Shown here piece after piece: positions 16,994 to 36,676 of a DNA stretch of 38,742 bases. Where the stretch lies: positions 1 to 38,742 of IMG/VR virus record IMGVR_UViG_3300032373_000046. One strand, given 5' to 3'. Under the pieces are notes generated by a model. It did no database searches and had not been told where the DNA came from. It saw only the letters and a program-made list of their open reading frames with translations. The DNA is from a virus. Taxonomy: Duplodnaviria > Caudoviricetes. Position numbers and translations under genes: made by a program. Position 1 is the first letter of the stretch. Every line of letters begins with the position of its first letter.

Positions 16994-17710
16994 ATGGAAA
17001 TTATCGGACGCAATTTGAATTGGGCAACCGGACCTATCCGCACCTACCTCAGAAAACAGACTGTTCTTTGGCCGCTTACAGCATTCCTAAAAAAATATAC
17101 CGTTCCCACATTCAATGCTTCTGATTTGCGGGTAATGCGCTGCTTGTATTGTATGGAAGAAACAAGCCATCTTGGTGGTGATATTGCAGAGTGCGGCATT
17201 GGAAGCGGTTATTCTCAGATATATATTCTTTCCTACTTAAATGAGTCGACAGACACTAGAGATTATCACGGCTTTGATACGTTCGAAGGCTTTCCTTTTA
17301 TTGATAAAGAAGACCTAGAAGGGATACCAGATCACCGCCGAGGCGTGTCTGTCGTGGGGCGTTATAAAGAATACCCGATTGCATATCATCAAAAGAGGGT
17401 GAACAAGTTAGGCATGGTCAATCGTGCCACCTTGCACAAGGGGCTTTTCAACGACACAATTCCAAAACTACCCGAAGATTTAAAATTCTCTTTTGTTTTT
17501 ATGGATTGCGACCTGTATCAAAGCTATCGCTCTTGCCTTGACAGTATGTATGATCGTGTTCTCTCTGGCGGCATTATCTTGTTTGATGAATACGAGCACA
17601 CTGTTGATTGGCCGGGCGCGAAAAAAGCTATCGATGAATTTTTTGCGGACAAAACGGAAAAGCCCGAGCCGTTACCTTTCGGCACAAGCTGGGTGGTGAG
17701 AAAAGTTTAA
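16994..17710 (+). CDS. TylF/MycF/NovP-family SAM-dependent O-methyltransferase (moron)
   Basis: GDIAECGIGSGYS, GFDTFEGFP, KGLFNDTIP, FVFMDCDLYQS, GGIILFDEY, WPGAKKAIDEFF; extended -10 TGTGATACT at 16951-16959. Confidence 0.88.
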   Translation: MEIIGRNLNWATGPIRTYLRKQTVLWPLTAFLKKYTVPTFNASDLRVMRCLYCMEETSHLGGDIAECGIGSGYSQIYILSYLNESTDTRDYHGFDTFEGFPFIDKEDLEGIPDHRRGVSVVGRYKEYPIAYHQKRVNKLGMVNRATLHKGLFNDTIPKLPEDLKFSFVFMDCDLYQSYRSCLDSMYDRVLSGGIILFDEYEHTVDWPGAKKAIDEFFADKTEKPEPLPFGTSWVVRKV

Positions 17711-18295: not shown

Positions 18296-18477
18296 GGTTA
18301 GACAAATTCCAAATAGCTCAACGGTTTCAACGGTGCCTTTCGGGGTGGTTAGACAACCTAAGCCATTGAAACACAGTGTTTGTGATAGTCCTCCCGGGAT
18401 CGCCATTTAAAAAATAAGCTATTGTAATATAGTGATTATTTTGTCTTTTTGTCTAACCCGGCTCGAAGGTTAGACAA
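18296..18477. mobile_element. attP region: core matching a tRNA 3' end plus four arm-type repeats
   Basis: TCCTCCCGGGATCGCCA at 18389-18405 (T-stem 3' half, acceptor 3' strand, G, CCA); GGTTAGACAA at 18296, 18347, 18468 and inverted at 18449; abuts integrase 3' end. Confidence 0.8.
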
Positions 18478-19530
18478 TTTACCTTCTGCAATTCCAGCTA
18501 TTTGGGCCTGGTTTACATCCCTTGTATAGTGCTCAATTTCACTCAATGATTTATGCCCGGTGATGGATGCTATTTCATGCGGTGTGCACCCTGCCTCTGC
18601 AAGCCTTCTAGCTGCCGCTTTTCTCAAACCGTGAGCGCTGCAATGTTTCAATCCGGCCTCATCGCACCACTTGCGAAATCGGTTTCCAAAGCCTTTTGCA
18701 GAGAACGGCGTACCATGCTCAGTAACTATGAATGTCATGTTATCTTTTGGCAGTGATGCAAGTAATGCTTGGTGCAACGGTATCCATAGATAAGTGCCAG
18801 TCTTTTGCTGGCGCACACGAATCATCGAGCCTTTAAGGTGCTGCCTACCCATTTTCACTACATCACACCGCCTCTGTGCCGTGTACAGCAGTAAGTCAAA
18901 GGTTAACCGGGCTTTGGTGCCGGTAGGATGCTTTGCCTCATAGGTCGCTATTTCTCCCTCGGTCCAAGTGTGGTGTCCTGCGGTTTTCTTTCTATACATT
19001 CGCACATGGTCGCAGGGGTTGTCTTCCCTCATGCCAATCTCTGCTGCGAACCTCATTAATATACGGAGTTTCTTAAACAAATTATTAGCCGCCTGCGGTC
19101 TATCTGACATTTTAGCCATGATTGCCTGAATATGCTTACGCTCTATTCCCTTCGCTGGCTTGTCGCCATGTTCGGCAAGAAATTTTTCAATGATAATACG
19201 GTATGTGTTTTTGGTGGTGTCGGCCAAATCGAGGAAATATGGCGACCGATAGTAAAGCGAAACAAGGGCTTTCATACTGCCTGGTATAACTTTAGCCTCA
19301 CCTATCTCTGGTCGCTGACCTGATACACAATAATCATATTCTTGCTGAAACTCTGGCGTGCCAAAGGAGCTTTGGAAGTAGTAACTAAACGCGCCTTTTC
19401 TATACCGATACCGCCGCTTTCCGTGGCGATCAGGGAAGGCGCTAACACGTTCTGGCAATCCATTCCGTTTAAGTTTCAAGTACGGTGTCCCACTCTTGAG
19501 AATCCTTGCTGGCATTAACAGGCGATCCAC
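18436..19530 (-). CDS. int: Tyrosine integrase (true start probably TTG at 19479)
   Basis: Catalytic residues in TAQRRCD (R), QQKTG (K), HGLRK (HxxR), TGHKS (H), EHYT (Y). Confidence 0.95.
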   Translation of the reverse strand: MDRLLMPARILKSGTPYLKLKRNGLPERVSAFPDRHGKRRYRYRKGAFSYYFQSSFGTPEFQQEYDYCVSGQRPEIGEAKVIPGSMKALVSLYYRSPYFLDLADTTKNTYRIIIEKFLAEHGDKPAKGIERKHIQAIMAKMSDRPQAANNLFKKLRILMRFAAEIGMREDNPCDHVRMYRKKTAGHHTWTEGEIATYEAKHPTGTKARLTFDLLLYTAQRRCDVVKMGRQHLKGSMIRVRQQKTGTYLWIPLHQALLASLPKDNMTFIVTEHGTPFSAKGFGNRFRKWCDEAGLKHCSAHGLRKAAARRLAEAGCTPHEIASITGHKSLSEIEHYTRDVNQAQIAGIAEGKLSNLRAGLDKKTK

Positions 19531-19661: not shown

Positions 19662-19754
19662 TTATTTAAACGTGTCCAATTTCCATATCCAAAGGCCAGC
19701 AACCCACATTAAGGTTGCTCCAATCACTACCCATTGCCAGAAGTCATGATCCAT
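19662..19754 (-). CDS. 30-aa membrane peptide (array unit 1)
   Basis: Not in ORF track; MDHDFWQWVVIGATLMWVAGLWIWKLDTFK; AAGGA RBS and array motif upstream. Confidence 0.6.
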   Translation of the reverse strand: MDHDFWQWVVIGATLMWVAGLWIWKLDTFK

Positions 19755-20310
19755 TGTCTGTGTCCTTTGACCGGCCCTTTTTGTCACCTCTCAAGGCTTG
19801 CCACATCGCTGACACATATTTGGCCTGGTGGATGGCATCAGCTAGGGCATCATGTTTCACGCCTTCAAACTCAAAATCTTCTTTGCTAATGATGCCTTCT
19901 GCACAATCGACAATGGTGCGAACATCGCGTACATTCCAGAAGGTCCAAGGGATACGCATTTCGTGTTGGCGATAAAGGTCTTCCAACATCGAGATGTCAA
20001 ATACAGCGCCGTTACCCCAAACAACCGCACCCACTGATAAGAATTCGGTGAGCAGCTCCAAAGCTGATATTTGGCTCGTACCGAAATCTTCGAGTAACGC
20101 TTGGCGGGCATCCTCGCTTTGGGTGAGCCACCACTTCACAGTGGCAGGGTCTATGGCGCGACCCTCACAAGCACTTTCAAAATCAAGTTTGTCATGCAGG
20201 GTGCGACCTGTTTCCCCTGTTTCAGGATCAAAAAATACTGCCCCGATTGAGAGAATGGGCGCTTGTGGTGAAGTGCCTAGCGTTTCCAGATCGATCATTA
20301 CGTGTTTCAT
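19744..20310 (-). CDS. 3'-5' exonuclease, DEDDh family (array unit 2)
   Basis: MIDLETLG, ILSIGAV, WGNG..FD, RDVRT, HDALADA.HQA motifs. Confidence 0.88.
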   Translation of the reverse strand: MKHVMIDLETLGTSPQAPILSIGAVFFDPETGETGRTLHDKLDFESACEGRAIDPATVKWWLTQSEDARQALLEDFGTSQISALELLTEFLSVGAVVWGNGAVFDISMLEDLYRQHEMRIPWTFWNVRDVRTIVDCAEGIISKEDFEFEGVKHDALADAIHQAKYVSAMWQALRGDKKGRSKDTDNGS

Positions 20311-20555
20311 TTTTCGTCTCCAGAATTAAGCGGGCCTTTAATGGCACCCTGAAGCTGCTCAAGGTAATTGAATTTCGGCAAGTCAACCCAGTCGGGTTCA
20401 TTTTCCCCTTGCTCGTACATGTAACAGGCATCGCAGACGAGCTGGCCGTTATGGATGCGGAACTCATCTTCAGGGTAAGAAGACTCGGTAGCGCAAGTTG
20501 CATCGCGACAGCTAAAAAGCGGTGTCGGCAAAGAATTTAATTTGGGTACGCTCAT
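20307..20555 (-). CDS. Small Cys-containing (possibly Zn-binding) hypothetical protein (unit 3)
   Basis: CRDATC...VCDACY; AAGGA RBS; motif upstream. Confidence 0.65.
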   Translation of the reverse strand: MSVPKLNSLPTPLFSCRDATCATESSYPEDEFRIHNGQLVCDACYMYEQGENEPDWVDLPKFNYLEQLQGAIKGPLNSGDEK

Positions 20556-20767
20556 TTCACCAAGTCCTTTGACCGGGGTTGTTTGTCATAAAATTCGTTT
20601 TCTAATGCGGCGGTCATCCGACTACGCACCGCACCCTTTGGCAAAAGCGTGAAACCAGCCTTAAGAGCCGCTATTCCTAGATGAACTCGCAAGATTGAAA
20701 ACTGACCTCGCACACGAATGATCGCAATCCGATAACAGTGCTTAATCTCTATCGCCGCTGCTTTCAT
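20552..20767 (-). CDS. Hypothetical protein (unit 4)
   Basis: AAGGTG RBS; ATGA-coupled at both ends. Confidence 0.6.
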   Translation of the reverse strand: MKAAAIEIKHCYRIAIIRVRGQFSILRVHLGIAALKAGFTLLPKGAVRSRMTAALENEFYDKQPRSKDLVK

Positions 20768-21069
20768 AGCTGATCACCTTGGCGGGGTTTGTTGGTCCGT
20801 TCTACCGTGATAACAAAATCACCAAATTCTCCAGCCGCGTCACTAACCTGATCAAGTCGATATTCGGCGCTCCCTGCGTTGCAATCATTCACCAGCCGAA
20901 GCAGCGAAATGATGGCGGCACCAGCAAGCAAAGTCTTAACATTGGCGTCACGTTGATTGATCTGTTCCGCTGTCACAAGAAGGTGTCGCGTAATATCAGC
21001 CACTAGCTTGTCAGGCGCTTCTGCCCAAGACAGATCGCGTTCATCATCAGAAAGAATTAGCTCACTCAT
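20764..21069 (-). CDS. Hypothetical protein (unit 5)
   Basis: GGAG RBS; ATGA-coupled. Confidence 0.65.
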   Translation of the reverse strand: MSELILSDDERDLSWAEAPDKLVADITRHLLVTAEQINQRDANVKTLLAGAAIISLLRLVNDCNAGSAEYRLDQVSDAAGEFGDFVITVERTNKPRQGDQL

Positions 21070-21344
21070 CGGCTGTCTCCATCAAGGCGGCCTATAATGA
21101 CACTCTGGCCGTCTGCAAGGGGCAGGGTTATTTTGGAAGCGCCTGAGTGCTTCTGTAATGCTGTAACGGACACCCTGACCTGCTCTTCAAGCACAACGCG
21201 GGTTTGCTCCCATTCGTCATCTTCAATGTTGATTGGCACCCCATGTTTTTCCAGATAGTCCAACCAGTGTTCGTGCTGCTCATTGGTCAACTGACCGTCA
21301 AACAGCAGTGGAACGACGTTGCTTTCTCCGTTCTCGGACATCAC
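21066..21344 (-). CDS. Hypothetical acidic protein (unit 6)
   Basis: GGAGG RBS, GTG/ATG start. Confidence 0.65.
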   Translation of the reverse strand: MMSENGESNVVPLLFDGQLTNEQHEHWLDYLEKHGVPINIEDDEWEQTRVVLEEQVRVSVTALQKHSGASKITLPLADGQSVIIGRLDGDSR

Positions 21345-21387
21345 TTTTCCTCCGTGACAGGCGTTGGGCGTTGTTTGGCGCTGTTTC

Positions 21388-21750
21388 TCATGGTGCTTTC
21401 TCAGCGGCCCGCAAGTCTGCTACTTCGTCGGCAAGAGAAGCGTTTTTTCCTGTAATGCGGTCTTCAACCGCTCGCTGTAGATCAATGATGCCATTCGGGC
21501 ATGTATTCGCCATTCGTAGGGCGCATATCACCATGTCCGCGACGTACTTTTGCACTGCCTCATGCTCAAATTCATGGCCGCCATGTTCGGCTTTATCGAT
21601 TACCGTAGCCAGCCCGCCGCAAGCCTTGACGATATGCAAAAGACCATGATCAAAGTCTTTATGTGTCTGCGGGTTGGCGCGAAAATCACGGTGATAATGC
21701 GCGGTCCAAGGCAGGCTTGATTGCAGTTCCCGTATGGTTTTATCGGTCAT
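21388..21750 (-). CDS. MazG-like all-alpha NTP-pyrophosphatase-fold protein, degenerate (unit 7)
   Basis: Start at MTDKTIRELQ after GGAG; pattern LLHIV..CGGLA...VADMVICALRMA...IDLQRAV..RI resembles MazG helices but lacks canonical EXXE. Confidence 0.45.
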   Translation of the reverse strand: MTDKTIRELQSSLPWTAHYHRDFRANPQTHKDFDHGLLHIVKACGGLATVIDKAEHGGHEFEHEAVQKYVADMVICALRMANTCPNGIIDLQRAVEDRITGKNASLADEVADLRAAEKAP

Positions 21751-21934
21751 TTTCATCTCCAGAATTAAGCGGGCGTTGTTTGGCAGGTTCTTCGATACCC
21801 AGTTCATCAAGTAACTCTTGCCTGCCTTCCTGCTTCCACTTTTCAGCATCGTCAGAAAGGCTGACGGTTAAGCCGGGCCATCTGCTTTCTATGTCAGACT
21901 TGAATGCCTCGAACTCAGTTCTATCAACTGCCAT
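21740..21934 (-). CDS. Hypothetical protein (unit 8)
   Basis: Start at MAVDRTEFE after GGAGG RBS. Confidence 0.6.
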   Translation of the reverse strand: MAVDRTEFEAFKSDIESRWPGLTVSLSDDAEKWKQEGRQELLDELGIEEPAKQRPLNSGDENDR

Positions 21935-22268
21935 TGTCGCCTCCGTCCGTTGATGGGCGTTTGTTGGACGGTGCTGCGTCATAGATGCAGATTTCCGCCA
22001 TATCTTCTTCAAGGGTTCCATAAACCGCCTGAATATCGATCTGCTGCTCACGCGGAAATTGATGGCCTTTCATTTTATGAAATGCGTGAATTGAACCAGA
22101 CAATCGATCTTTCTTGCCATAGCCTTTTGATAGCGTGACACGGCGACCGGGCGTGCAAGTGTCTGCATTCCATCGAGGGCCATGTAGCCTGATTTCCGAA
22201 AGCTTTGATCCGTCGGCGAAAGCTTCATAGTATTGCGTTTTGAGCGGTATAAAGAGGGGCTTACGCAT
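21924..22268 (-). CDS. ASCH-domain protein (unit 9)
   Basis: Start at MRKPLFIPLK; L...YYEAF.DGSK.SEIR matches the ASCH GxKxxExR signature. Confidence 0.72.
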   Translation of the reverse strand: MRKPLFIPLKTQYYEAFADGSKLSEIRLHGPRWNADTCTPGRRVTLSKGYGKKDRLSGSIHAFHKMKGHQFPREQQIDIQAVYGTLEEDMAEICIYDAAPSNKRPSTDGGDNGS

Positions 22269-22548
22269 CGGCGTTATCCTTTGGGCGTTGTTTGGCATCT
22301 ACCTCTTGCCATAGTTTCTGCAAGCAGCTTTGGTATCTAGCTTCGTCATTAAAAAAACCAGAACTTGAATATCTGTGCTGTTTACAGGGTGGTTCGGGGT
22401 GCATGTAAGAATAAAGCAGCCAATATCCACCACCGAAATAGAGTGCGCCAATTATCAAAAATGGAGCGGTGTTTGCTGTTTTGGATGCGGTCCATATTAA
22501 TACCAAGATCGCACCGATCAGATACAAGAAGAAGGCTATCATAGCCAT
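22261..22548 (-). CDS. Two-TM membrane protein (unit 10)
   Basis: Two hydrophobic helices then a Cys pair; AGGAG RBS. Confidence 0.65.
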   Translation of the reverse strand: MAMIAFFLYLIGAILVLIWTASKTANTAPFLIIGALYFGGGYWLLYSYMHPEPPCKQHRYSSSGFFNDEARYQSCLQKLWQEVDAKQRPKDNADA

Positions 22549-22757
22549 TATTTCTGCTCCTGATTAGATGGGCGTCTTTTGTCACTTCCTGAAAACATCC
22601 AGTTAATTATCTTGACCATTGTATATTGATCAGCGGCTTTACCATTTTCGAGGCGGCACATTGTTGAAGGCAAAACGCCAATTTCTTTTGCAAGATCGCG
22701 TTGGTTTAAGTCGTTCATGGTTCGATACAAAACCAGTAGTTTTCCGACCTTATTCAT
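22548..22757 (-). CDS. XRE-family HTH protein (unit 11)
   Basis: LNQRDLAKEIGV.PSTMCRLENGK. Confidence 0.85.
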   Translation of the reverse strand: MNKVGKLLVLYRTMNDLNQRDLAKEIGVLPSTMCRLENGKAADQYTMVKIINWMFSGSDKRRPSNQEQK

Positions 22758-23041
22758 GTCTGATTACCTTGTGGGGGTTGTTTGTCACCTGTGAACATTT
22801 CAGGTTTTTGCTTGAGCCGGACTCCTGTCCACGGATAACTCATGTCTACGAGTACGATGTCAGGGTCTCCGCAAAGCTGCCCAAACCAAATAGCTGTTTG
22901 CTCTGTCTCTGTGGCGTCAAAAACAGAGAACCTACCGGCCTTTAATGCAGCAGACTTGACCTCTTCATAAGAAGCCGCGTCGTCGCAAGTGGTGAAGCAG
23001 TCCACCACCCCCAAGCTAACTTTGGTCGCTGGCTTATGCAT
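22754..23041 (-). CDS. Hypothetical protein (unit 12)
   Basis: AAGGAG RBS; coupled to neighbours. Confidence 0.65.
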   Translation of the reverse strand: MHKPATKVSLGVVDCFTTCDDAASYEEVKSAALKAGRFSVFDATETEQTAIWFGQLCGDPDIVLVDMSYPWTGVRLKQKPEMFTGDKQPPQGNQT

Positions 23042-23321
23042 CGGTGTCTCCTTTTAGCCGGCGTTGTTTGTCACTTTTCAAAGCATCCAGATCGGCAAGC
23101 CTGCCAATCATCACTTGTTTGCTTTTTTCAAGTTGTTCAATCTCTTTGACGAAATGGTCCCGAACCGTTGAAATCGGGATCGGGCAAACAGCACAGTTCT
23201 GGCAAATTTCTTCTGCCTCTTTCTCGCTGTACAAACCCGCGTCACGAATATGAACGGTGTACCCCTGCGAGTTCGGGCGATAATACACGCCGCGCTTTTT
23301 CAGTAGGTATTGTTCAACCAT
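23034..23321 (-). CDS. Conserved phage hypothetical protein (unit 13)
   Basis: YYRPNSQGYT....AGLYS..EA motif recurrent in phage accessory proteins; GGAG RBS. Confidence 0.68.
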   Translation of the reverse strand: MVEQYLLKKRGVYYRPNSQGYTVHIRDAGLYSEKEAEEICQNCAVCPIPISTVRDHFVKEIEQLEKSKQVMIGRLADLDALKSDKQRRLKGDTDA

Positions 23322-23396
23322 TGTCAGAACTCCGGGGTTGTTTGGCAGGCTTCGGTAAATCCAAAAGCTTGCCGTATTTCATTGCACCGCGATTGA

Positions 23397-24221
23397 TTAG
23401 ACATCGAACGCCTCCTGTGAAAAACAGGCTGCAGACTGGTTTTTGCCCTTGGAATAACAGGCTACAGACTGGTTTTTTGCTGCTTCGCCAAATCTCTTGG
23501 CCATCCATGTTGGAACGCCGTTTCCGATAGCGGTGTAAACCTGTTTGTCCCAATCGCTTTTCGTCCCGTCGAACCAATCGGGGGCAAAGGTCCACTGATA
23601 AGGAACTTGATCTAAGCCCATTGCGCGGGCGCATTCACGTATTGTGAGTTTCCGGCCAAAGTGGCGGCTGGCGCGCCGCGTATCGGTCGCGCACCCTTTG
23701 TATTCAGAGCCTGTTATGCAGGGCGGTAAGTTCCGTTCGCGGTAGTGAGGCTTGAAAGGGAAATCTGTTTCAGGTGCCGGGTATGTACCACCCACAATGC
23801 GTTGCCTGTTGTGACGGGCTTCTTTCCATTGTGCGGCATTCCAGGCAGTACCCCAATCATTGCCCTTGTTACCCTGTAGTTTGATGTTTTCAACCCACAG
23901 CGCCTGCAAATGCGGATAGCGCCCCATGAGGTCTAATGACCATTCTAAAAGGTCTTCTGCAAATTCACCTTGCGCTGGACCTTGAGTGCGCGCCGAACTT
24001 CTTTTCTGGCATGGTGGAGACGCCCAAACGGCATCAGCCCAATTGATGATTTTCGCCGCTTTCTCTGAGCGCACATCATCCAAAAGGCATGGCCCATATC
24101 CGAGAAACTGACCTAGATAATGTGCGACAGGGTTAAGCTCGACACCGTGGCAAATATGCCCGGCTTGCTCCAAACCCCAACGGGCGAAACCCGCGCCATC
24201 AAAGAGAACGGCAATACGCAT
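23397..24221 (-). CDS. DNA (cytosine-5)-methyltransferase, orphan
   Basis: Motif I LFDGAG, IV SPPCQ, VI VENI, VIII RQR, IX TIRECAR, X IGNGV. Confidence 0.85.
   Translation of the reverse strand: MRIAVLFDGAGFARWGLEQAGHICHGVELNPVAHYLGQFLGYGPCLLDDVRSEKAAKIINWADAVWASPPCQKRSSARTQGPAQGEFAEDLLEWSLDLMGRYPHLQALWVENIKLQGNKGNDWGTAWNAAQWKEARHNRQRIVGGTYPAPETDFPFKPHYRERNLPPCITGSEYKGCATDTRRASRHFGRKLTIRECARAMGLDQVPYQWTFAPDWFDGTKSDWDKQVYTAIGNGVPTWMAKRFGEAAKNQSVACYSKGKNQSAACFSQEAFDV
23423..23477. repeat. 22-bp direct repeat pair, 33-bp period, in the MTase 3' end at the head of the array
   Basis: AACAGGCTGCAGACTGGTTTTT (23423-23444) and AACAGGCTACAGACTGGTTTTT (23456-23477). Confidence 0.85.
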
Positions 24222-24255
24222 TACAAATTACCTTTCGTGACAAACAGGGACGCCA

Positions 24256-24573
24256 TTATTCTGACCCTCCGATTAACTGGCCTATCGTCGGCCCTTTGAA
24301 TGTCGTGATGGGGAGCGCGCCAACAATTTCTTCGTCGGGGAAAACCGGCGTTTCGCTCCATTCCAATTGAAAATTAAAACCCATTGAGCCGTCAGGATTG
24401 AAGGTCCATTTTCCTGCGTTCGGGATATGAACATGGGGCAATTGGTCAACCAAATCGAAGACCTGTTTTTTCGTGCACCGGCACATTCTCGATAACTCTG
24501 AAATCCAGATCGGACCGCAGGCTTTTACAATGCGGGTTATCTTTTCACCGCGTTCAACAGATGACCGGCTCAT
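24256..24573 (-). CDS. Hypothetical protein, possible winged-helix DNA-binding domain
   Basis: GPIWISELSRMCRCTKKQVFDLVDQL is HTH-like. Confidence 0.55.
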   Translation of the reverse strand: MSRSSVERGEKITRIVKACGPIWISELSRMCRCTKKQVFDLVDQLPHVHIPNAGKWTFNPDGSMGFNFQLEWSETPVFPDEEIVGALPITTFKGPTIGQLIGGSE

Positions 24574-25103
24574 GATGATGCCAGCTTTAGAAAAGAAGTG
24601 CCAACCTGCTTGGCCTCTGTTAGCTCTTTGTAAGAGTTTTTTTTGTCTTCCATCGTGTAAACAGCACTCTCAAGGTTGTCGATTACATAGCCGGGGCCGA
24701 TATTAACAATCGCAATCGCGTGGTATACCCACTCGTATGATTGAGGATCGCGGGTGTATCCAACATAAACCGCAGCCCTTCCCGCAAGGCGAGGGTATGT
24801 TTCATTAAACAGGTTGACCGCAGCTATAGCCCAATCTTCACAGTCGCCAATGCCGTTGACCCGACAATCCTGCCAATAATCAGGCTGTCCATAATATTCA
24901 GAATCAAAGTTTTCACCGCCCGCCAAATATCCTTGCTCGCACTGTGCGGCTATTTTCTTGCGAATGTTTTTGTTTAGCTCGCTTCGTGAGGGAACTTCGT
25001 GCGAAAGCGGGTCAATATATTCAGGCTCGGTACTCTTGCGACCACCCAAGAAACTCAGGCCAGCTACAACAAGTATCAGTGAAATGATTAGTATGCGTTT
25101 CAT
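24570..25103 (-). CDS. Membrane-anchored transglutaminase-like cysteine protease (BTLCP / peptidase C93, LapG-like)
   Basis: N-terminal signal/TM; DYWQ, GDCEDWAIA (Cys), HAIAIV (His), VIDN (Asp). Confidence 0.75.
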   Translation of the reverse strand: MKRILIISLILVVAGLSFLGGRKSTEPEYIDPLSHEVPSRSELNKNIRKKIAAQCEQGYLAGGENFDSEYYGQPDYWQDCRVNGIGDCEDWAIAAVNLFNETYPRLAGRAAVYVGYTRDPQSYEWVYHAIAIVNIGPGYVIDNLESAVYTMEDKKNSYKELTEAKQVGTSFLKLASS

Positions 25104-26457: not shown

Positions 26458-26771
26458 TATGTCCTCGCTGCTGCTCTATGGTTTGCTTCGGCGTTTTGCC
26501 ATTCCATTTGTTTTGCTTTTAAATACTCAAGACGGCCTCTAGCCCTGTTAGCAGCCGCTGTGGTATCGACCATCTCTTGAATGTAGTTTCGCCACTCAGG
26601 GGACGCCTTAACGTCTCTCTCGGCCCTGTTGTAAGCAAGGTCACCCCGCTCTTTGATCTTTTGAGCCAAGAAAGCGGTTTTCATTTCGGTACGAAAGTCA
26701 GCGGCAGCCTTTTTGTCGCTCCAGTCATCCCATGCAATATGAATTTGCTCTGATAAAGGGGCGTTGCTCAT
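26457..26771 (-). CDS. Helical recombination-module protein (possibly UvsY-like mediator)
   Basis: 104 aa coiled coil, AE..V.AS.EW pattern; between erf and ssb. Confidence 0.5.
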
Positions 26772-27478
26772 TTTTTGGCCTCAAATTCAGCAGCTTGTTT
26801 CAGCTCTTTCCTTCGCTGTGAAAATTCTGACCGTAAACCTGGGGTGAACTCGTCAAACCTCCTTTCACCATCCAAAAAGCCGGGGCAATCATGTGAGGCT
26901 TGATCAACAAAAGCCTTGAACTCAGGGCTATCCTTCACAGCATCCAGATCGGCAACACATTTTGCATCTTCAATCTGCGCGGTAATTTCTTTAGCGGCCT
27001 TTGACAGCTCGCCCTTATTCATCGGGCCTTGCCAATTCGGATCGCGGCTATTCTTCGGTGGATAACGATTACTTACAGTCACAGTGGCTGTGCTATCGCT
27101 CTCTAGGCGCTGTTCGTTGTCATCTTCGGGGCATATACCCAAAAGCTGCATATAGCCGTATCTGCGGGCGTATGTGAGCGCTGCGCCGTACCCTTGAGGA
27201 TTTACCCCTTGGTGTTCAACATTGGTGTATACTTCAATCCACTGACCGGACGCATGGAAAAGCCTACTAACCATTGACTTGTCGTGGTGGCTTTGAACAA
27301 CATAAAGGTCGTTGTAGTGCAGCGCCTGCTCGGTTTTATCAATAATCTCAGGGAAGGGCGCGTATTTATATTTGTACTTTTTGGTGTCGACCTCGCAAGA
27401 CTTGATTATAGTTCCGAAGCTTGGCCTTGCAGCCACTAGAGCGGCGGTTATTTCACCGATGTTTTCTGATGTTCTCAT
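26768..27478 (-). CDS. erf: ERF-family single-strand annealing protein
   Basis: YKYA....I, L.HASGQW, PQGYGAALTYARRYG....LGI..EDD signature. Confidence 0.9.
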   Translation of the reverse strand: MRTSENIGEITAALVAARPSFGTIIKSCEVDTKKYKYKYAPFPEIIDKTEQALHYNDLYVVQSHHDKSMVSRLFHASGQWIEVYTNVEHQGVNPQGYGAALTYARRYGYMQLLGICPEDDNEQRLESDSTATVTVSNRYPPKNSRDPNWQGPMNKGELSKAAKEITAQIEDAKCVADLDAVKDSPEFKAFVDQASHDCPGFLDGERRFDEFTPGLRSEFSQRRKELKQAAEFEAKK

Positions 27479-28772: not shown

Positions 28773-29105
28773 CCTCGTTAAGGCGTGGGGGCTGAACCTG
28801 TTTCATATGGGTGGTGGTTCGCCCCCTTTGGCCCGTTTCCACATCTGCTCGGAAAGATGTTGAGTGGCGCTTTACCGACTGTGCACATTTCGATAAAGTA
28901 GGACTTGCAACTTAATGCCGGGGTTTCACGCTTTCGCCTACTAACCCACAGCTCCCTATTTTTCCTTTTACACCTCTACGTGAGGCCACCAACTCAACAC
29001 CTATCGAAACAGATGTGGTTTATCCCGCGCCCTGTGTTCATGCTGCGCATGTGGTTGGGCTTGTTGCGGTGCAGCGGGTCTGCGCTTACGGCTCGTCGCT
29101 GCTGA

Positions 29106-29167
29106 TGAAAACTATATTGCCAAAATCGCAATAATTAGTCAAGCATTTAAATTGCCAAAATCGCAAT
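29106..29167 (-). promoter_or_regulatory. PL promoter with two operators (OL)
   Basis: TTGACT-N17-CAATAT on minus strand, predicted start ATCAGC at 29106; identical ATTGCCAAAATCGCAAT at 29116-29132 and 29151-29167. Confidence 0.8.
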
Positions 29168-29875: not shown

Positions 29876-29960
29876 TTTGCGAATTTAGCAAACCATGTAA
29901 ATTGTTATAATGGCAATAAACAGCTTTACTTAAACTTGCGATTATGGCAATATTGCAAGC
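29876..29960 (+). promoter_or_regulatory. OR operators (three) and PR promoter
   Basis: TTG(C)-N7-GCAA sites at 29876-29892, 29901-29917, 29935-29951; TTTACT(29925)-N17-CAATAT(29948). Confidence 0.8.
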
Positions 29961-30209
29961 ATGACAAATGTAGCAAGACATATAATTTCCAAATTTGGTG
30001 ACGGTGACTTCAAGGTCGGCGTGCCAGTAGTGGCAGGCATCCTTGGGTTAGATGTGACCAGAGTTTACCGCATGACATACCCTAAAAACAAAGGTGGAAC
30101 TGGCGGACTTGTTCCTGCCCAGCACCAACAACCTCTATTAGAACAGGCGAGGGTGCGCAGTGTTGATTTGCGGCCTGAAGATTTTTTCACACCTATCGCC
30201 GCCGAGTAG
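29961..30209 (+). CDS. cro: Cro-like regulator
   Basis: Divergent from cI; VAGILGLDVTRVYRM HTH; GGTGG.VP...Q and L.PEDFF motifs. Confidence 0.8.
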   Translation: MTNVARHIISKFGDGDFKVGVPVVAGILGLDVTRVYRMTYPKNKGGTGGLVPAQHQQPLLEQARVRSVDLRPEDFFTPIAAE

Positions 30210-36189: not shown

Positions 36190-36220
36190 TAACCTAGTTT
36201 TGGTTAAGTGAGTTTTGAGT

Positions 36221-36676
36221 ATGACTGTTATTGCGTGGGACGGCAAAACCCTTGCGGCTGACAAACAGACAAACGGCGACGGCACGATTGGCCGAACCAC
36301 AAAGATTTTCAAAGCAGATAATGGATCGATTCTAGCTTTTTGTGGAATGGCTGGACATATACCTGTATTACTTGAGTGGTATAATGACGGTCAGAAAAAA
36401 GAAGACTGGCCAAAGTTTCAATCAGAAGATGGCTGGACTGGAATAGTAGAAGCCTCAAACGGTGTAGTTAGAGAGTTCGAGCAGCACCCACTCCCAATGA
36501 CACTAGAGGATAACTTTTATGCCTGGGGGTCAGGCGGAAGTTTTGCAATTGGCGCAATGGAGCACGGAGCTTCTGCAATAGAAGCTGTGGACGTAGCGTG
36601 CAGGCGATCAGCAACATGCGGTGGCGGTTGTGATAGCTTTGATAGTCTGTCAGTTGAAATCAAGGCCGCTGAGTAA
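36221..36676 (+). CDS. Ntn-hydrolase (proteasome beta/HslV-like) fold protein
   Basis: M-TVIAWDG..LAADKQ, KIF, CG.AG, AWGSGG.FA.GAM..GASA.EAV..A......GG motifs; Thr follows the initiator Met. Confidence 0.75.
   Translation: MTVIAWDGKTLAADKQTNGDGTIGRTTKIFKADNGSILAFCGMAGHIPVLLEWYNDGQKKEDWPKFQSEDGWTGIVEASNGVVREFEQHPLPMTLEDNFYAWGSGGSFAIGAMEHGASAIEAVDVACRRSATCGGGCDSFDSLSVEIKAAE

Follow-up and report, generated by a model that had tools for sequence, protein, structure and literature searches.

Frame-locked joints between the small genes of a P22-like phage: a candidate boundary sequence for single-gene exchange

The virus record IMGVR_UViG_3300032373_000046 (Duplodnaviria; Caudoviricetes), analysed here over its whole length of 38,742 nucleotides and referred to as the window, contains an array of 13 small genes (units) whose junctions each carry a copy of one 16-base motif. 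The array lies on the minus strand at 19662-23347, between a C5 DNA methyltransferase gene and a putative xis gene. An earlier note on this DNA had taken the motif, seen at the gene junctions, to be a recombination site at which one-gene cassettes are inserted, excised or shuffled. The motif is not intergenic; it is nearly always located within the coding tails of the upstream genes, where it is read in one common frame and is followed by a linker that leads to the ATG of the next gene. It is reasonably likely, judging from the sequence, that the motif belongs to a boundary-sequence joint for the homology-driven exchange of single genes, one that keeps translation coupled whichever genes it brings together.

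The junction motif and its distribution

The 13 motif strings of the earlier note are each found exactly once on the minus strand, all in the same orientation, the coordinates given for them being the last (lowest) base of each 16-mer. Numbered from the methyltransferase downwards, the copies and the open reading frames (ORFs) that bear on their reading are:

23332-23347, minus strand: copy 1, between the methyltransferase gene and unit 1
23314-23382, minus strand: ORF of 22 codons over copy 1, in the motif frame, with no clear ribosome site
23324-23404, minus strand: ORF of 26 codons over copy 1, in another frame, its start overlapping the methyltransferase stop
23058-23073, minus strand: copy 2, in the tail of unit 1
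22772-22787, minus strand: copy 3, in the tail of unit 2, with a linker related to that of copy 10
22569-22584, minus strand: copy 4, in the tail of unit 3
22282-22297, minus strand: copy 5, in the tail of unit 4
21954-21969, minus strand: copy 6, divergent, in the tail of unit 5
21770-21785, minus strand: copy 7, in the tail of unit 6, sharing 36 nt at 86% with copy 12
21365-21380, minus strand: copy 8, within a 16-codon mini-ORF
21341-21391, minus strand: this mini-ORF, an 'empty' unit of inferred translation, whose ATG overlaps the stop of unit 7 and which stops at the start of unit 8
21087-21102, minus strand: copy 9, the weakest, in the tail of unit 8
20782-20797, minus strand: copy 10, divergent, in the tail of unit 9
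20573-20588, minus strand: copy 11, in the tail of unit 10, sharing 25 nt at 84% with copy 13
20331-20346, minus strand: copy 12, in the tail of unit 11
19771-19786, minus strand: copy 13, in the tail of the exonuclease (unit 12), beginning where most homologues end

Positions 4, 5, 13 and 14 of the motif are invariant, and GC-rich ends flank an A/T-rich centre of six bases, for which six different hexamers occur among the 13 copies; the motif is not palindromic and has no inverted arms. The existence of a distinct motif is upheld by a leave-one-out scan of the genome with a position weight matrix (PWM), in which 10 of the 13 copies beat every non-training site. For the three weak copies (21969, 20797 and 21102), 4, 14 and 104 genome sites, respectively, score higher, and the chance probabilities within the 26 positions before a start are about 0.0007, 0.003 and 0.035, as calculated from about 3000 random windows. 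The largest family of 14-mers in the array has 8 members, as against 2-3 in all 25 Markov shuffles and in all seven other genome blocks.

All copies fall within a single 3.6-kb block, and the motif is absent from promoter regions. Its reported absence from the rest of the operon is borne out by the 17 other leftward junctions, which score only -18.0 to 0.6, and among the rightward starts 1/32 reaches a score of 9.4. The array genes had also been described as promoterless, and no sigma70-like promoter was called on the minus strand in 19662-23347. The distance from motif to start, previously put at 10-20 nt, holds if the GTG at 21344 is taken; otherwise the gap is 10-23 nt at all 13 junctions. 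That the most divergent copies are distal amounts to a trend (rho -0.51, p 0.078). The motif also has an inverted look-alike, on the plus strand at 24238-24253 (score 11.7, the fifth best non-training site), which may be due to chance; this look-alike falls in an 11-codon mini-ORF that spans from a gene end at 24256 to the methyltransferase start, the junction just before the array.

Reading frame, stops and linkers

At 11 of the 13 junctions, the reading frame of the upstream gene is still open where it enters the motif and continues across it, always in the same register, giving tails such as DKQRR, AKQRP or DKKGR; by simple arithmetic, the chance of 11 copies falling into one frame is (1/3)^10. 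A 12th copy (copy 8) is in the same common frame within its ATGA-coupled mini-ORF, and the reading of copy 1 appears ambiguous between the 22-codon and 26-codon candidates. The stop in the common frame lies at -2 to +8 of the next ATG at all 13 junctions and overlaps the next start; the first stops in the other two frames are scattered, from -36 to +273 and from -25 to +360. The motif frame never equals the frame of the downstream gene.

The constraint on the motif acts on the nucleic acid, as wobble positions are conserved while the encoded residues change. A wobble C is found at motif position 4 in 13/13 copies and likewise at position 13, where codon usage would predict 4.9 and 3.7, respectively. 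This makes it very improbable that selection acts on a shared C-terminal peptide, approximately [AD]-K-Q-[RP]-[PR], as a degradation or targeting tag, for although the frame is the same in all annotated genes, the residues vary (D/A/V/S/T; K/N/I; Q/R/K/I; R/P/G) over fixed wobble bases, the tail also occurs in the 16-codon mini-ORF, and the homologues have no tag.

The stretch between motif and ATG carries purine-rich, ribosome-site-like words in a linker that is variable, and these linkers form subfamilies common to unrelated genes (8 of 78 pairs with z>3). The likeness ends at the ATG: no pair out of 78 is alike after it, and two are alike upstream of the motif. The best linker pair, 36 nt at 86%, stands before unit 7, a MazG-like gene, and before the exonuclease (copies 7 and 12).

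Comparison with homologues suggests that the motif tails look added on to the genes. A loose pattern flagged motif-like tails in 2 of 119 exonuclease homologues, both of which proved to be basic runs elsewhere, and in 0 of 150 homologues of unit 5. A few exonuclease homologues end in G-D/E-K-K/Q, resembling the first half of copy 13, and such an ending could mark a microhomology entry point of the joint.

A model of exchange at the joint

Under the favoured reading, the joint would be a stretch of 30-40 bases, comprising the motif core, the ribosome-site linker and the ATG, that is written into the end of each small gene. A unit would then span from its ATG to the motif, and would borrow its stop and the ribosome site for its neighbour from the joint. 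Single accessory genes would be exchanged between related phages by general, homology-driven recombination at the joint, and a crossover between two joints, within one phage or between two, would yield a new pair of neighbours complete with stop, ribosome site and coupling. Because the frame is fixed, with a stop between -2 and +8 of the next ATG and out of register with the downstream gene in every case, a crossover at any two joints would preserve all three, whereas crossovers in other frames would yield fusions or uncoupled genes. Such swap products would survive selection and keep renewing the joint. On rare occasions a new gene may be captured through microhomology or through illegitimate joining at the ATG and the motif, and it would spread once bracketed. 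Partners in sibling phages may match better than those within the array, where low identity would prevent the array from collapsing.

A general recombinase is present, the gene for the single-strand annealing protein ERF (PF04404) being located in the same operon upstream of the array. The phage ERF would be the most natural candidate enzyme, with the annealing protein of a co-infecting phage or host RecA as alternatives. An Erf has been described as efficient on diverged DNA (PMC3945230), and RecET is reported to join 5-13 bp at a low rate (PMC2327257). The earlier note's claim that the motif is a recombination site for one-gene modules is therefore retained in part: the linkers shared up to the ATG, the fixed frame and the gene swaps in a related clade (see below) support it indirectly, and its site-specific version is not upheld. 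Recombination by ERF or microhomology fits best among the mechanisms put forward there, although ERF itself is not singled out, being found in one of eight clade records.

A different junction word in capsid-related phages

A search with the capsid protein led to ten near-complete relatives. In one of these (G026; locus L277, 4640-6280), four consecutive genes are linked through another word, whose in-frame translation is LAEIKGESHE/D and at which stop and start overlap as ATGA. This word was found at 68 viral loci (L398-L465), four of them in records also reached by the capsid search. The clade, with genomes of 33-41 kb and 60% capsid identity, has its own in-frame junction word, at which changes of neighbour are frequent.

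For analysis, the duplicates L432 and L448 were removed, leaving 66 loci, 61 of which contribute 93 junctions; junctions were excluded if they lay too close to the end of a locus or if the flanks under test contained a stop, and contexts were grouped by DNA clustering. The 93 junctions represent 69 distinct contexts, and at least two different partners are found for 12 of 14 recurring upstream genes and for 12 of 14 recurring downstream genes. Junctions with the same upstream gene are 92-99% identical before the word, 100% identical within it and 26-38% identical from ten bases past the ATG; where the downstream gene is the same, identity amounts to 23-29% at distances of more than 20 bases upstream. 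Overall, identity declines from 92-100% to about 28% over the ten bases that follow the ATG. In 96 of the 97 copies of the word, one and the same frame stays open over the 50 codons preceding it.

Points against exchange at the joint, and the search for relatives

Several observations weigh against the exchange reading. Scans of viral contigs, bacterial genomes and part of the metagenomes revealed no second genome with the motif, and hence no breakpoint at the motif was observed; swapping in the array is not demonstrated for the window phage, as no relative carrying the motif was found. The word of the capsid-related clade is different and longer, and includes the ribosome site and the ATG. 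The enrichment of neighbour changes in the clade is also not controlled, since the loci were chosen by the word and breakpoints at other junctions were not counted. The exchange enzyme is not pinned down in the clade either, as ERF is detectable in 1/8 clade records and Rad52 or RecT in 0/8. Within the array, the longest identical run between any two copies is 19 nt, with runs of at least 14 nt in just 5 of 78 pairs, which is shorter than the minimal pairing segment of 23-27 bp given for Red-beta (PMC3945230), so that exchange between the present copies would be inefficient. Conservation is highest in the 16-mer, which precedes the ribosome site, so that this core may itself serve in binding. 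Finally, at the mini-ORF junctions that follow unit 7 and the methyltransferase, these two genes have no motif in their own tails.

The searches for relatives were made by several routes. Among viral contigs, 27 and 42 loci with single matches were retrieved, none with three same-strand PWM hits of at least 13. Bacterial genomes gave 66 single-match loci and no array, using a pattern that fits just 2 of the 13 motif copies; nine matches in Xenorhabdus belong to one common repeated context without an array. From 14 of 64 metagenome parts, comprising at least 120 loci, the sole array (L367) coincides with the window in length and coordinates and is not an independent one. Fifty records found by capsid, exonuclease or integrase have at most one motif match each at 2 mismatches, and an 18-base linker pattern had no matches. 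Searches based on proteins produced no sibling DNA: the integrase led to one locus at 24%, ERF to none, unit 1 to itself only, and the exonuclease to 28 loci, all without the motif. Ten unit proteins were looked up, and a further sequence was found for unit 7 alone, on a different contig of 1233 bp. The assembled contigs of one DNA run, labelled microbial mat and possibly the source, contain a single contig across the array and no joints, a result that is uninformative on rare circles. One exonuclease-bearing viral contig (L081, 2468-6431, minus strand) has six copies of a 14-mer resembling CAGTAAAACAGGAA, possibly another junction motif.

Alternative explanations

Besides the peptide tag discussed above, three alternatives were weighed, and the four are not fully exclusive of one another or of the favoured reading. 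The following features of the window bear on them:

18436-19470, minus strand: tyrosine integrase, not of the integron type (domain match)
18296-18477: 10-base repeat TTGTCTAACC, four copies, one inverted, at the integrase end, two copies forming an inverted pair within the last integrase codons
29204-29866: repressor gene (PHROG match)
29117-29166 (two, left) and 29877-29967 (four, right of the repressor): six palindromic 15-base operators of the TTG-N9-CAA type (OL, OR), a clean immunity region

The alternative that survives best, although rather doubtful, is that the motif acts at the RNA level, in the initiation or regulation of the gene that follows. It would then be a C/A-rich enhancer, a standby site or a site for a phage or host protein or small RNA, comparable to the start-associated sequences of cluster K mycobacteriophages, with gene swapping as a by-product. 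The placement of the motif in one orientation, 10-23 nt before each start and adjoining the ribosome site, is consistent with this notion, as are the greater conservation of the core compared with the ribosome site and the C/A-rich centre, which is predicted to be unpaired (at least 0.79) in 9 of the 13 copies. An RNA signal needs no single reading frame, however, and the observed frame is fixed. Furthermore, folding predicts the initiation regions to be no more open than those of 15 other junctions (0.52 versus 0.49, p 0.49), the core genes of the same operon do without the motif, and no Rfam family matches the window.

It is unlikely that a dedicated site-specific system, be it the phage integrase (Int), host Xer or another recombinase, inserts, excises or shuffles one-gene cassettes at the motif. 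The strict orientation, the presence of one site per gene next to xis and int, the invariant positions 4, 5, 13 and 14, the GC-rich ends enclosing six A/T-rich central bases, and the single inverted look-alike at the head of the array are all properties that such a system might display. Yet the motif has no inverted arms and its centre varies, and ordinary tyrosine recombinases do not tolerate a variable centre (overlap). Int scores 18 bits against a cut-off of 265 bits for integron integrases (TIGR02249). The repeats on the attP side, TTGTCTAACC, are likely the arm sites of Int; they are a different word, which the motif matches no better than random. More than one PWM hit was found in none of 24 integrase-related loci (28-53% identity), a weak test of the motif travelling with the integrase family because these relatives are distant. 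The earlier statement that the motif forms no attC hairpin is confirmed: both core-site patterns of the attC consensus occur together at no junction, and the DNA fold has z values of -1.8 to 1.4 at all 13. A single crossover point does not explain why unrelated genes have a whole linker in common up to the ATG. In addition, the clade swaps genes without a detectable tyrosine (PF00589) or serine (PF00239) recombinase, both absent from all eight clade records in a search that detects the integrase of the window as positive control. A particular version, in which the 16-mer would be the target of a dedicated non-integron recombinase, each cassette supplying its neighbour's stop and coupling and 24238-24253 serving as entry site, is to be regarded as equally improbable. 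If the core were such a target, the array would represent a second natural gene-cassette system beside integrons.

A still smaller chance attaches to the idea that the motif is an asymmetric DNA site at which the phage repressor blocks elongation, like the stoperators of L5. The motif is indeed asymmetric, oriented with transcription and located at junctions, and has a few bases in common with the operator half-site of the phage. Its copies nevertheless score as random on the operator matrix (means of -10.2 versus -8.8 for spacer 3; -6.9 versus -8.8 for spacer 4, with a standard deviation of 5.3), the motif is restricted to its one block with none in promoter regions, and the fixed frame and shared linkers are left unexplained.

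Comparison with known systems

The boundary sequences, or linkers, of lambdoid phages were proposed as a substrate for general recombination at gene boundaries (PMC3029335). Like these, the joint of the window is a short homology at the boundaries of unrelated genes; unlike these, it is found at 13 successive junctions, has 16 conserved bases with linker subfamilies, is locked in frame, and supplies a stop and the next ribosome site. For genes 67 and 68 of Island3, the last 18 residues of an inserted gene, and the DNA encoding them, are also present in the gene upstream (PMC3029335). Mosaic breakpoints within shared sequence are seen in the capsid-related clade, at a different word and with no control at other junctions.

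The promoter-early stem-loop (PeSL) cassettes of the T4-type phages RB49 and phi1 are similarly repeated elements before orphan genes in variable regions, whose copies recombine and cause modular shuffling (PMC2839356). They differ in that they belong to lytic myoviruses and are intergenic, each combining a sigma70 promoter with a stem-loop terminator (PMC2839356); the array has neither a minus-strand promoter nor a hairpin shared across the 13 junctions. By analogy, the array may work like the lambdoid boundary sequences, the Island3 case and the shuffling of PeSLs.

The start-associated sequences (SAS) of cluster K mycobacteriophages are also asymmetric, oriented repeats directly before starts, with unproven function (PMC3203893). 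SAS overlap the position of the ribosome site, occur genome-wide and stay with the same gene families (PMC3203893), whereas the motif is upstream of the ribosome site, in one block and in frame with the preceding gene. Integron attC arrays in phages, including clusters of attC sites lacking integron integrases (CALINs; PMC9892861), resemble the array in having small, promoterless, unrelated genes with one site each; the array, in contrast, is without IntI, attC fold, paired core sites or intergenic room, and most of its genes have no stop of their own before the site. The stoperators of cluster A mycobacteriophages are likewise short asymmetric sites oriented with transcription, but a stoperator is the repressor's own operator and is found genome-wide (PMC3029335), whereas the palindromic operators of the window phage are a separate set, to which the motif shows no match. 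Based on these comparisons, the array appears not to belong among PeSL, integron/attC, stoperator or strict SAS systems. No description of a frame-locked array of this kind was found in the literature searched, although subscription papers and supplements may hold one.

The units and their genomic setting

The units of the array are:

23034-23321, minus strand: unit 1, 95 aa, no assigned function; distant relative of gene 74, beside xis/int in Azospirillum phage Cd
22754-23041, minus strand: unit 2, 95 aa, no assigned function; three distant relatives, all without the tail
22548-22757, minus strand: unit 3, 69 aa, XRE-type helix-turn-helix, below the Pfam cut-off
22261-22548, minus strand: unit 4, 95 aa, hydrophobic N-terminus, no family
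21924-22268, minus strand: unit 5, 114 aa, phrog_625, with 574 relatives at E<=0.001
21740-21934, minus strand: unit 6, 64 aa, no family
21388-21750, minus strand: unit 7, 120 aa, phrog_27761, with its own stop kept
21066-21341, minus strand: unit 8, 91 aa, no family
20764-21069, minus strand: unit 9, 101 aa, no family
20552-20767, minus strand: unit 10, 71 aa, no family
20307-20555, minus strand: unit 11, 82 aa, no family
19744-20310, minus strand: unit 12, 188 aa, 3'-5' exonuclease (PF16473)
19662-19754, minus strand: unit 13, hydrophobic peptide of 30 aa, the last gene before the putative xis

PADLOC marked no unit as a defence gene beyond generic matches to the exonuclease and the helix-turn-helix protein. 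Unit 7 is MazG-like by language-model features (0.92), which serves as a lead only, and could possibly be a nucleotide-depleting counter-defence gene; an NCBIfam match of this unit, at 17 bits against a threshold of 300, was discounted as chance.

The window is a complete 38.7-kb virus record with terminal repeats, and its PHROG matches (portal, scaffold, capsid, head closure and ejection proteins) indicate the layout of a P22-like temperate podophage. The leftward operon contains, by PHROG or domain matches, ERF, SSB, two HNH genes and a C5 methyltransferase:

26768-27478, minus strand: ERF single-strand annealing protein, candidate recombinase (PF04404 above cut-off)
23397-24221, minus strand: C5 DNA methyltransferase, head of the array (domain match)

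The host is probably a member of the Alphaproteobacteria, because the best relatives of the integrase are found mostly in phages and genomes of this class. Comparison with cultured phages by blastn returned nothing beyond short matches to SSB and the exonuclease, and a scan of 68 proteins recognised no lysis genes. Directly before the array, the tail of the methyltransferase gene contains a 33-base tandem duplication (23414-23477). A second methyltransferase gene (16994-17710, plus strand), at the end of the late operon, adjoins attP, faces the leftward genes and is moron-like. Two putative peptidases were also noted, a transglutaminase-like cysteine peptidase with a hydrophobic N-terminus (24570-25103, minus strand; PF06035 below cut-off) and one of the HslV family (36215-36676, plus strand). 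The untranslated leader of the leftward operon (28839-29018) has inverted arms of 27 bases at 81%, 126 nt apart, and might form a structured antitermination RNA.

Implications for phage mosaicism

How single genes are swapped at gene boundaries in temperate phages is a long-standing question, and boundary sequences are not findable at most mosaic joints, according to PMC3029335. Here, 13 successive junctions carry such a sequence. In the capsid-related clade, neighbours already change at a word of this type in about 60 loci. The arrangement would amount to a design rule for exchange, in which a joint that closes one gene and opens the next ensures that a swap can neither make a fusion nor uncouple translation.

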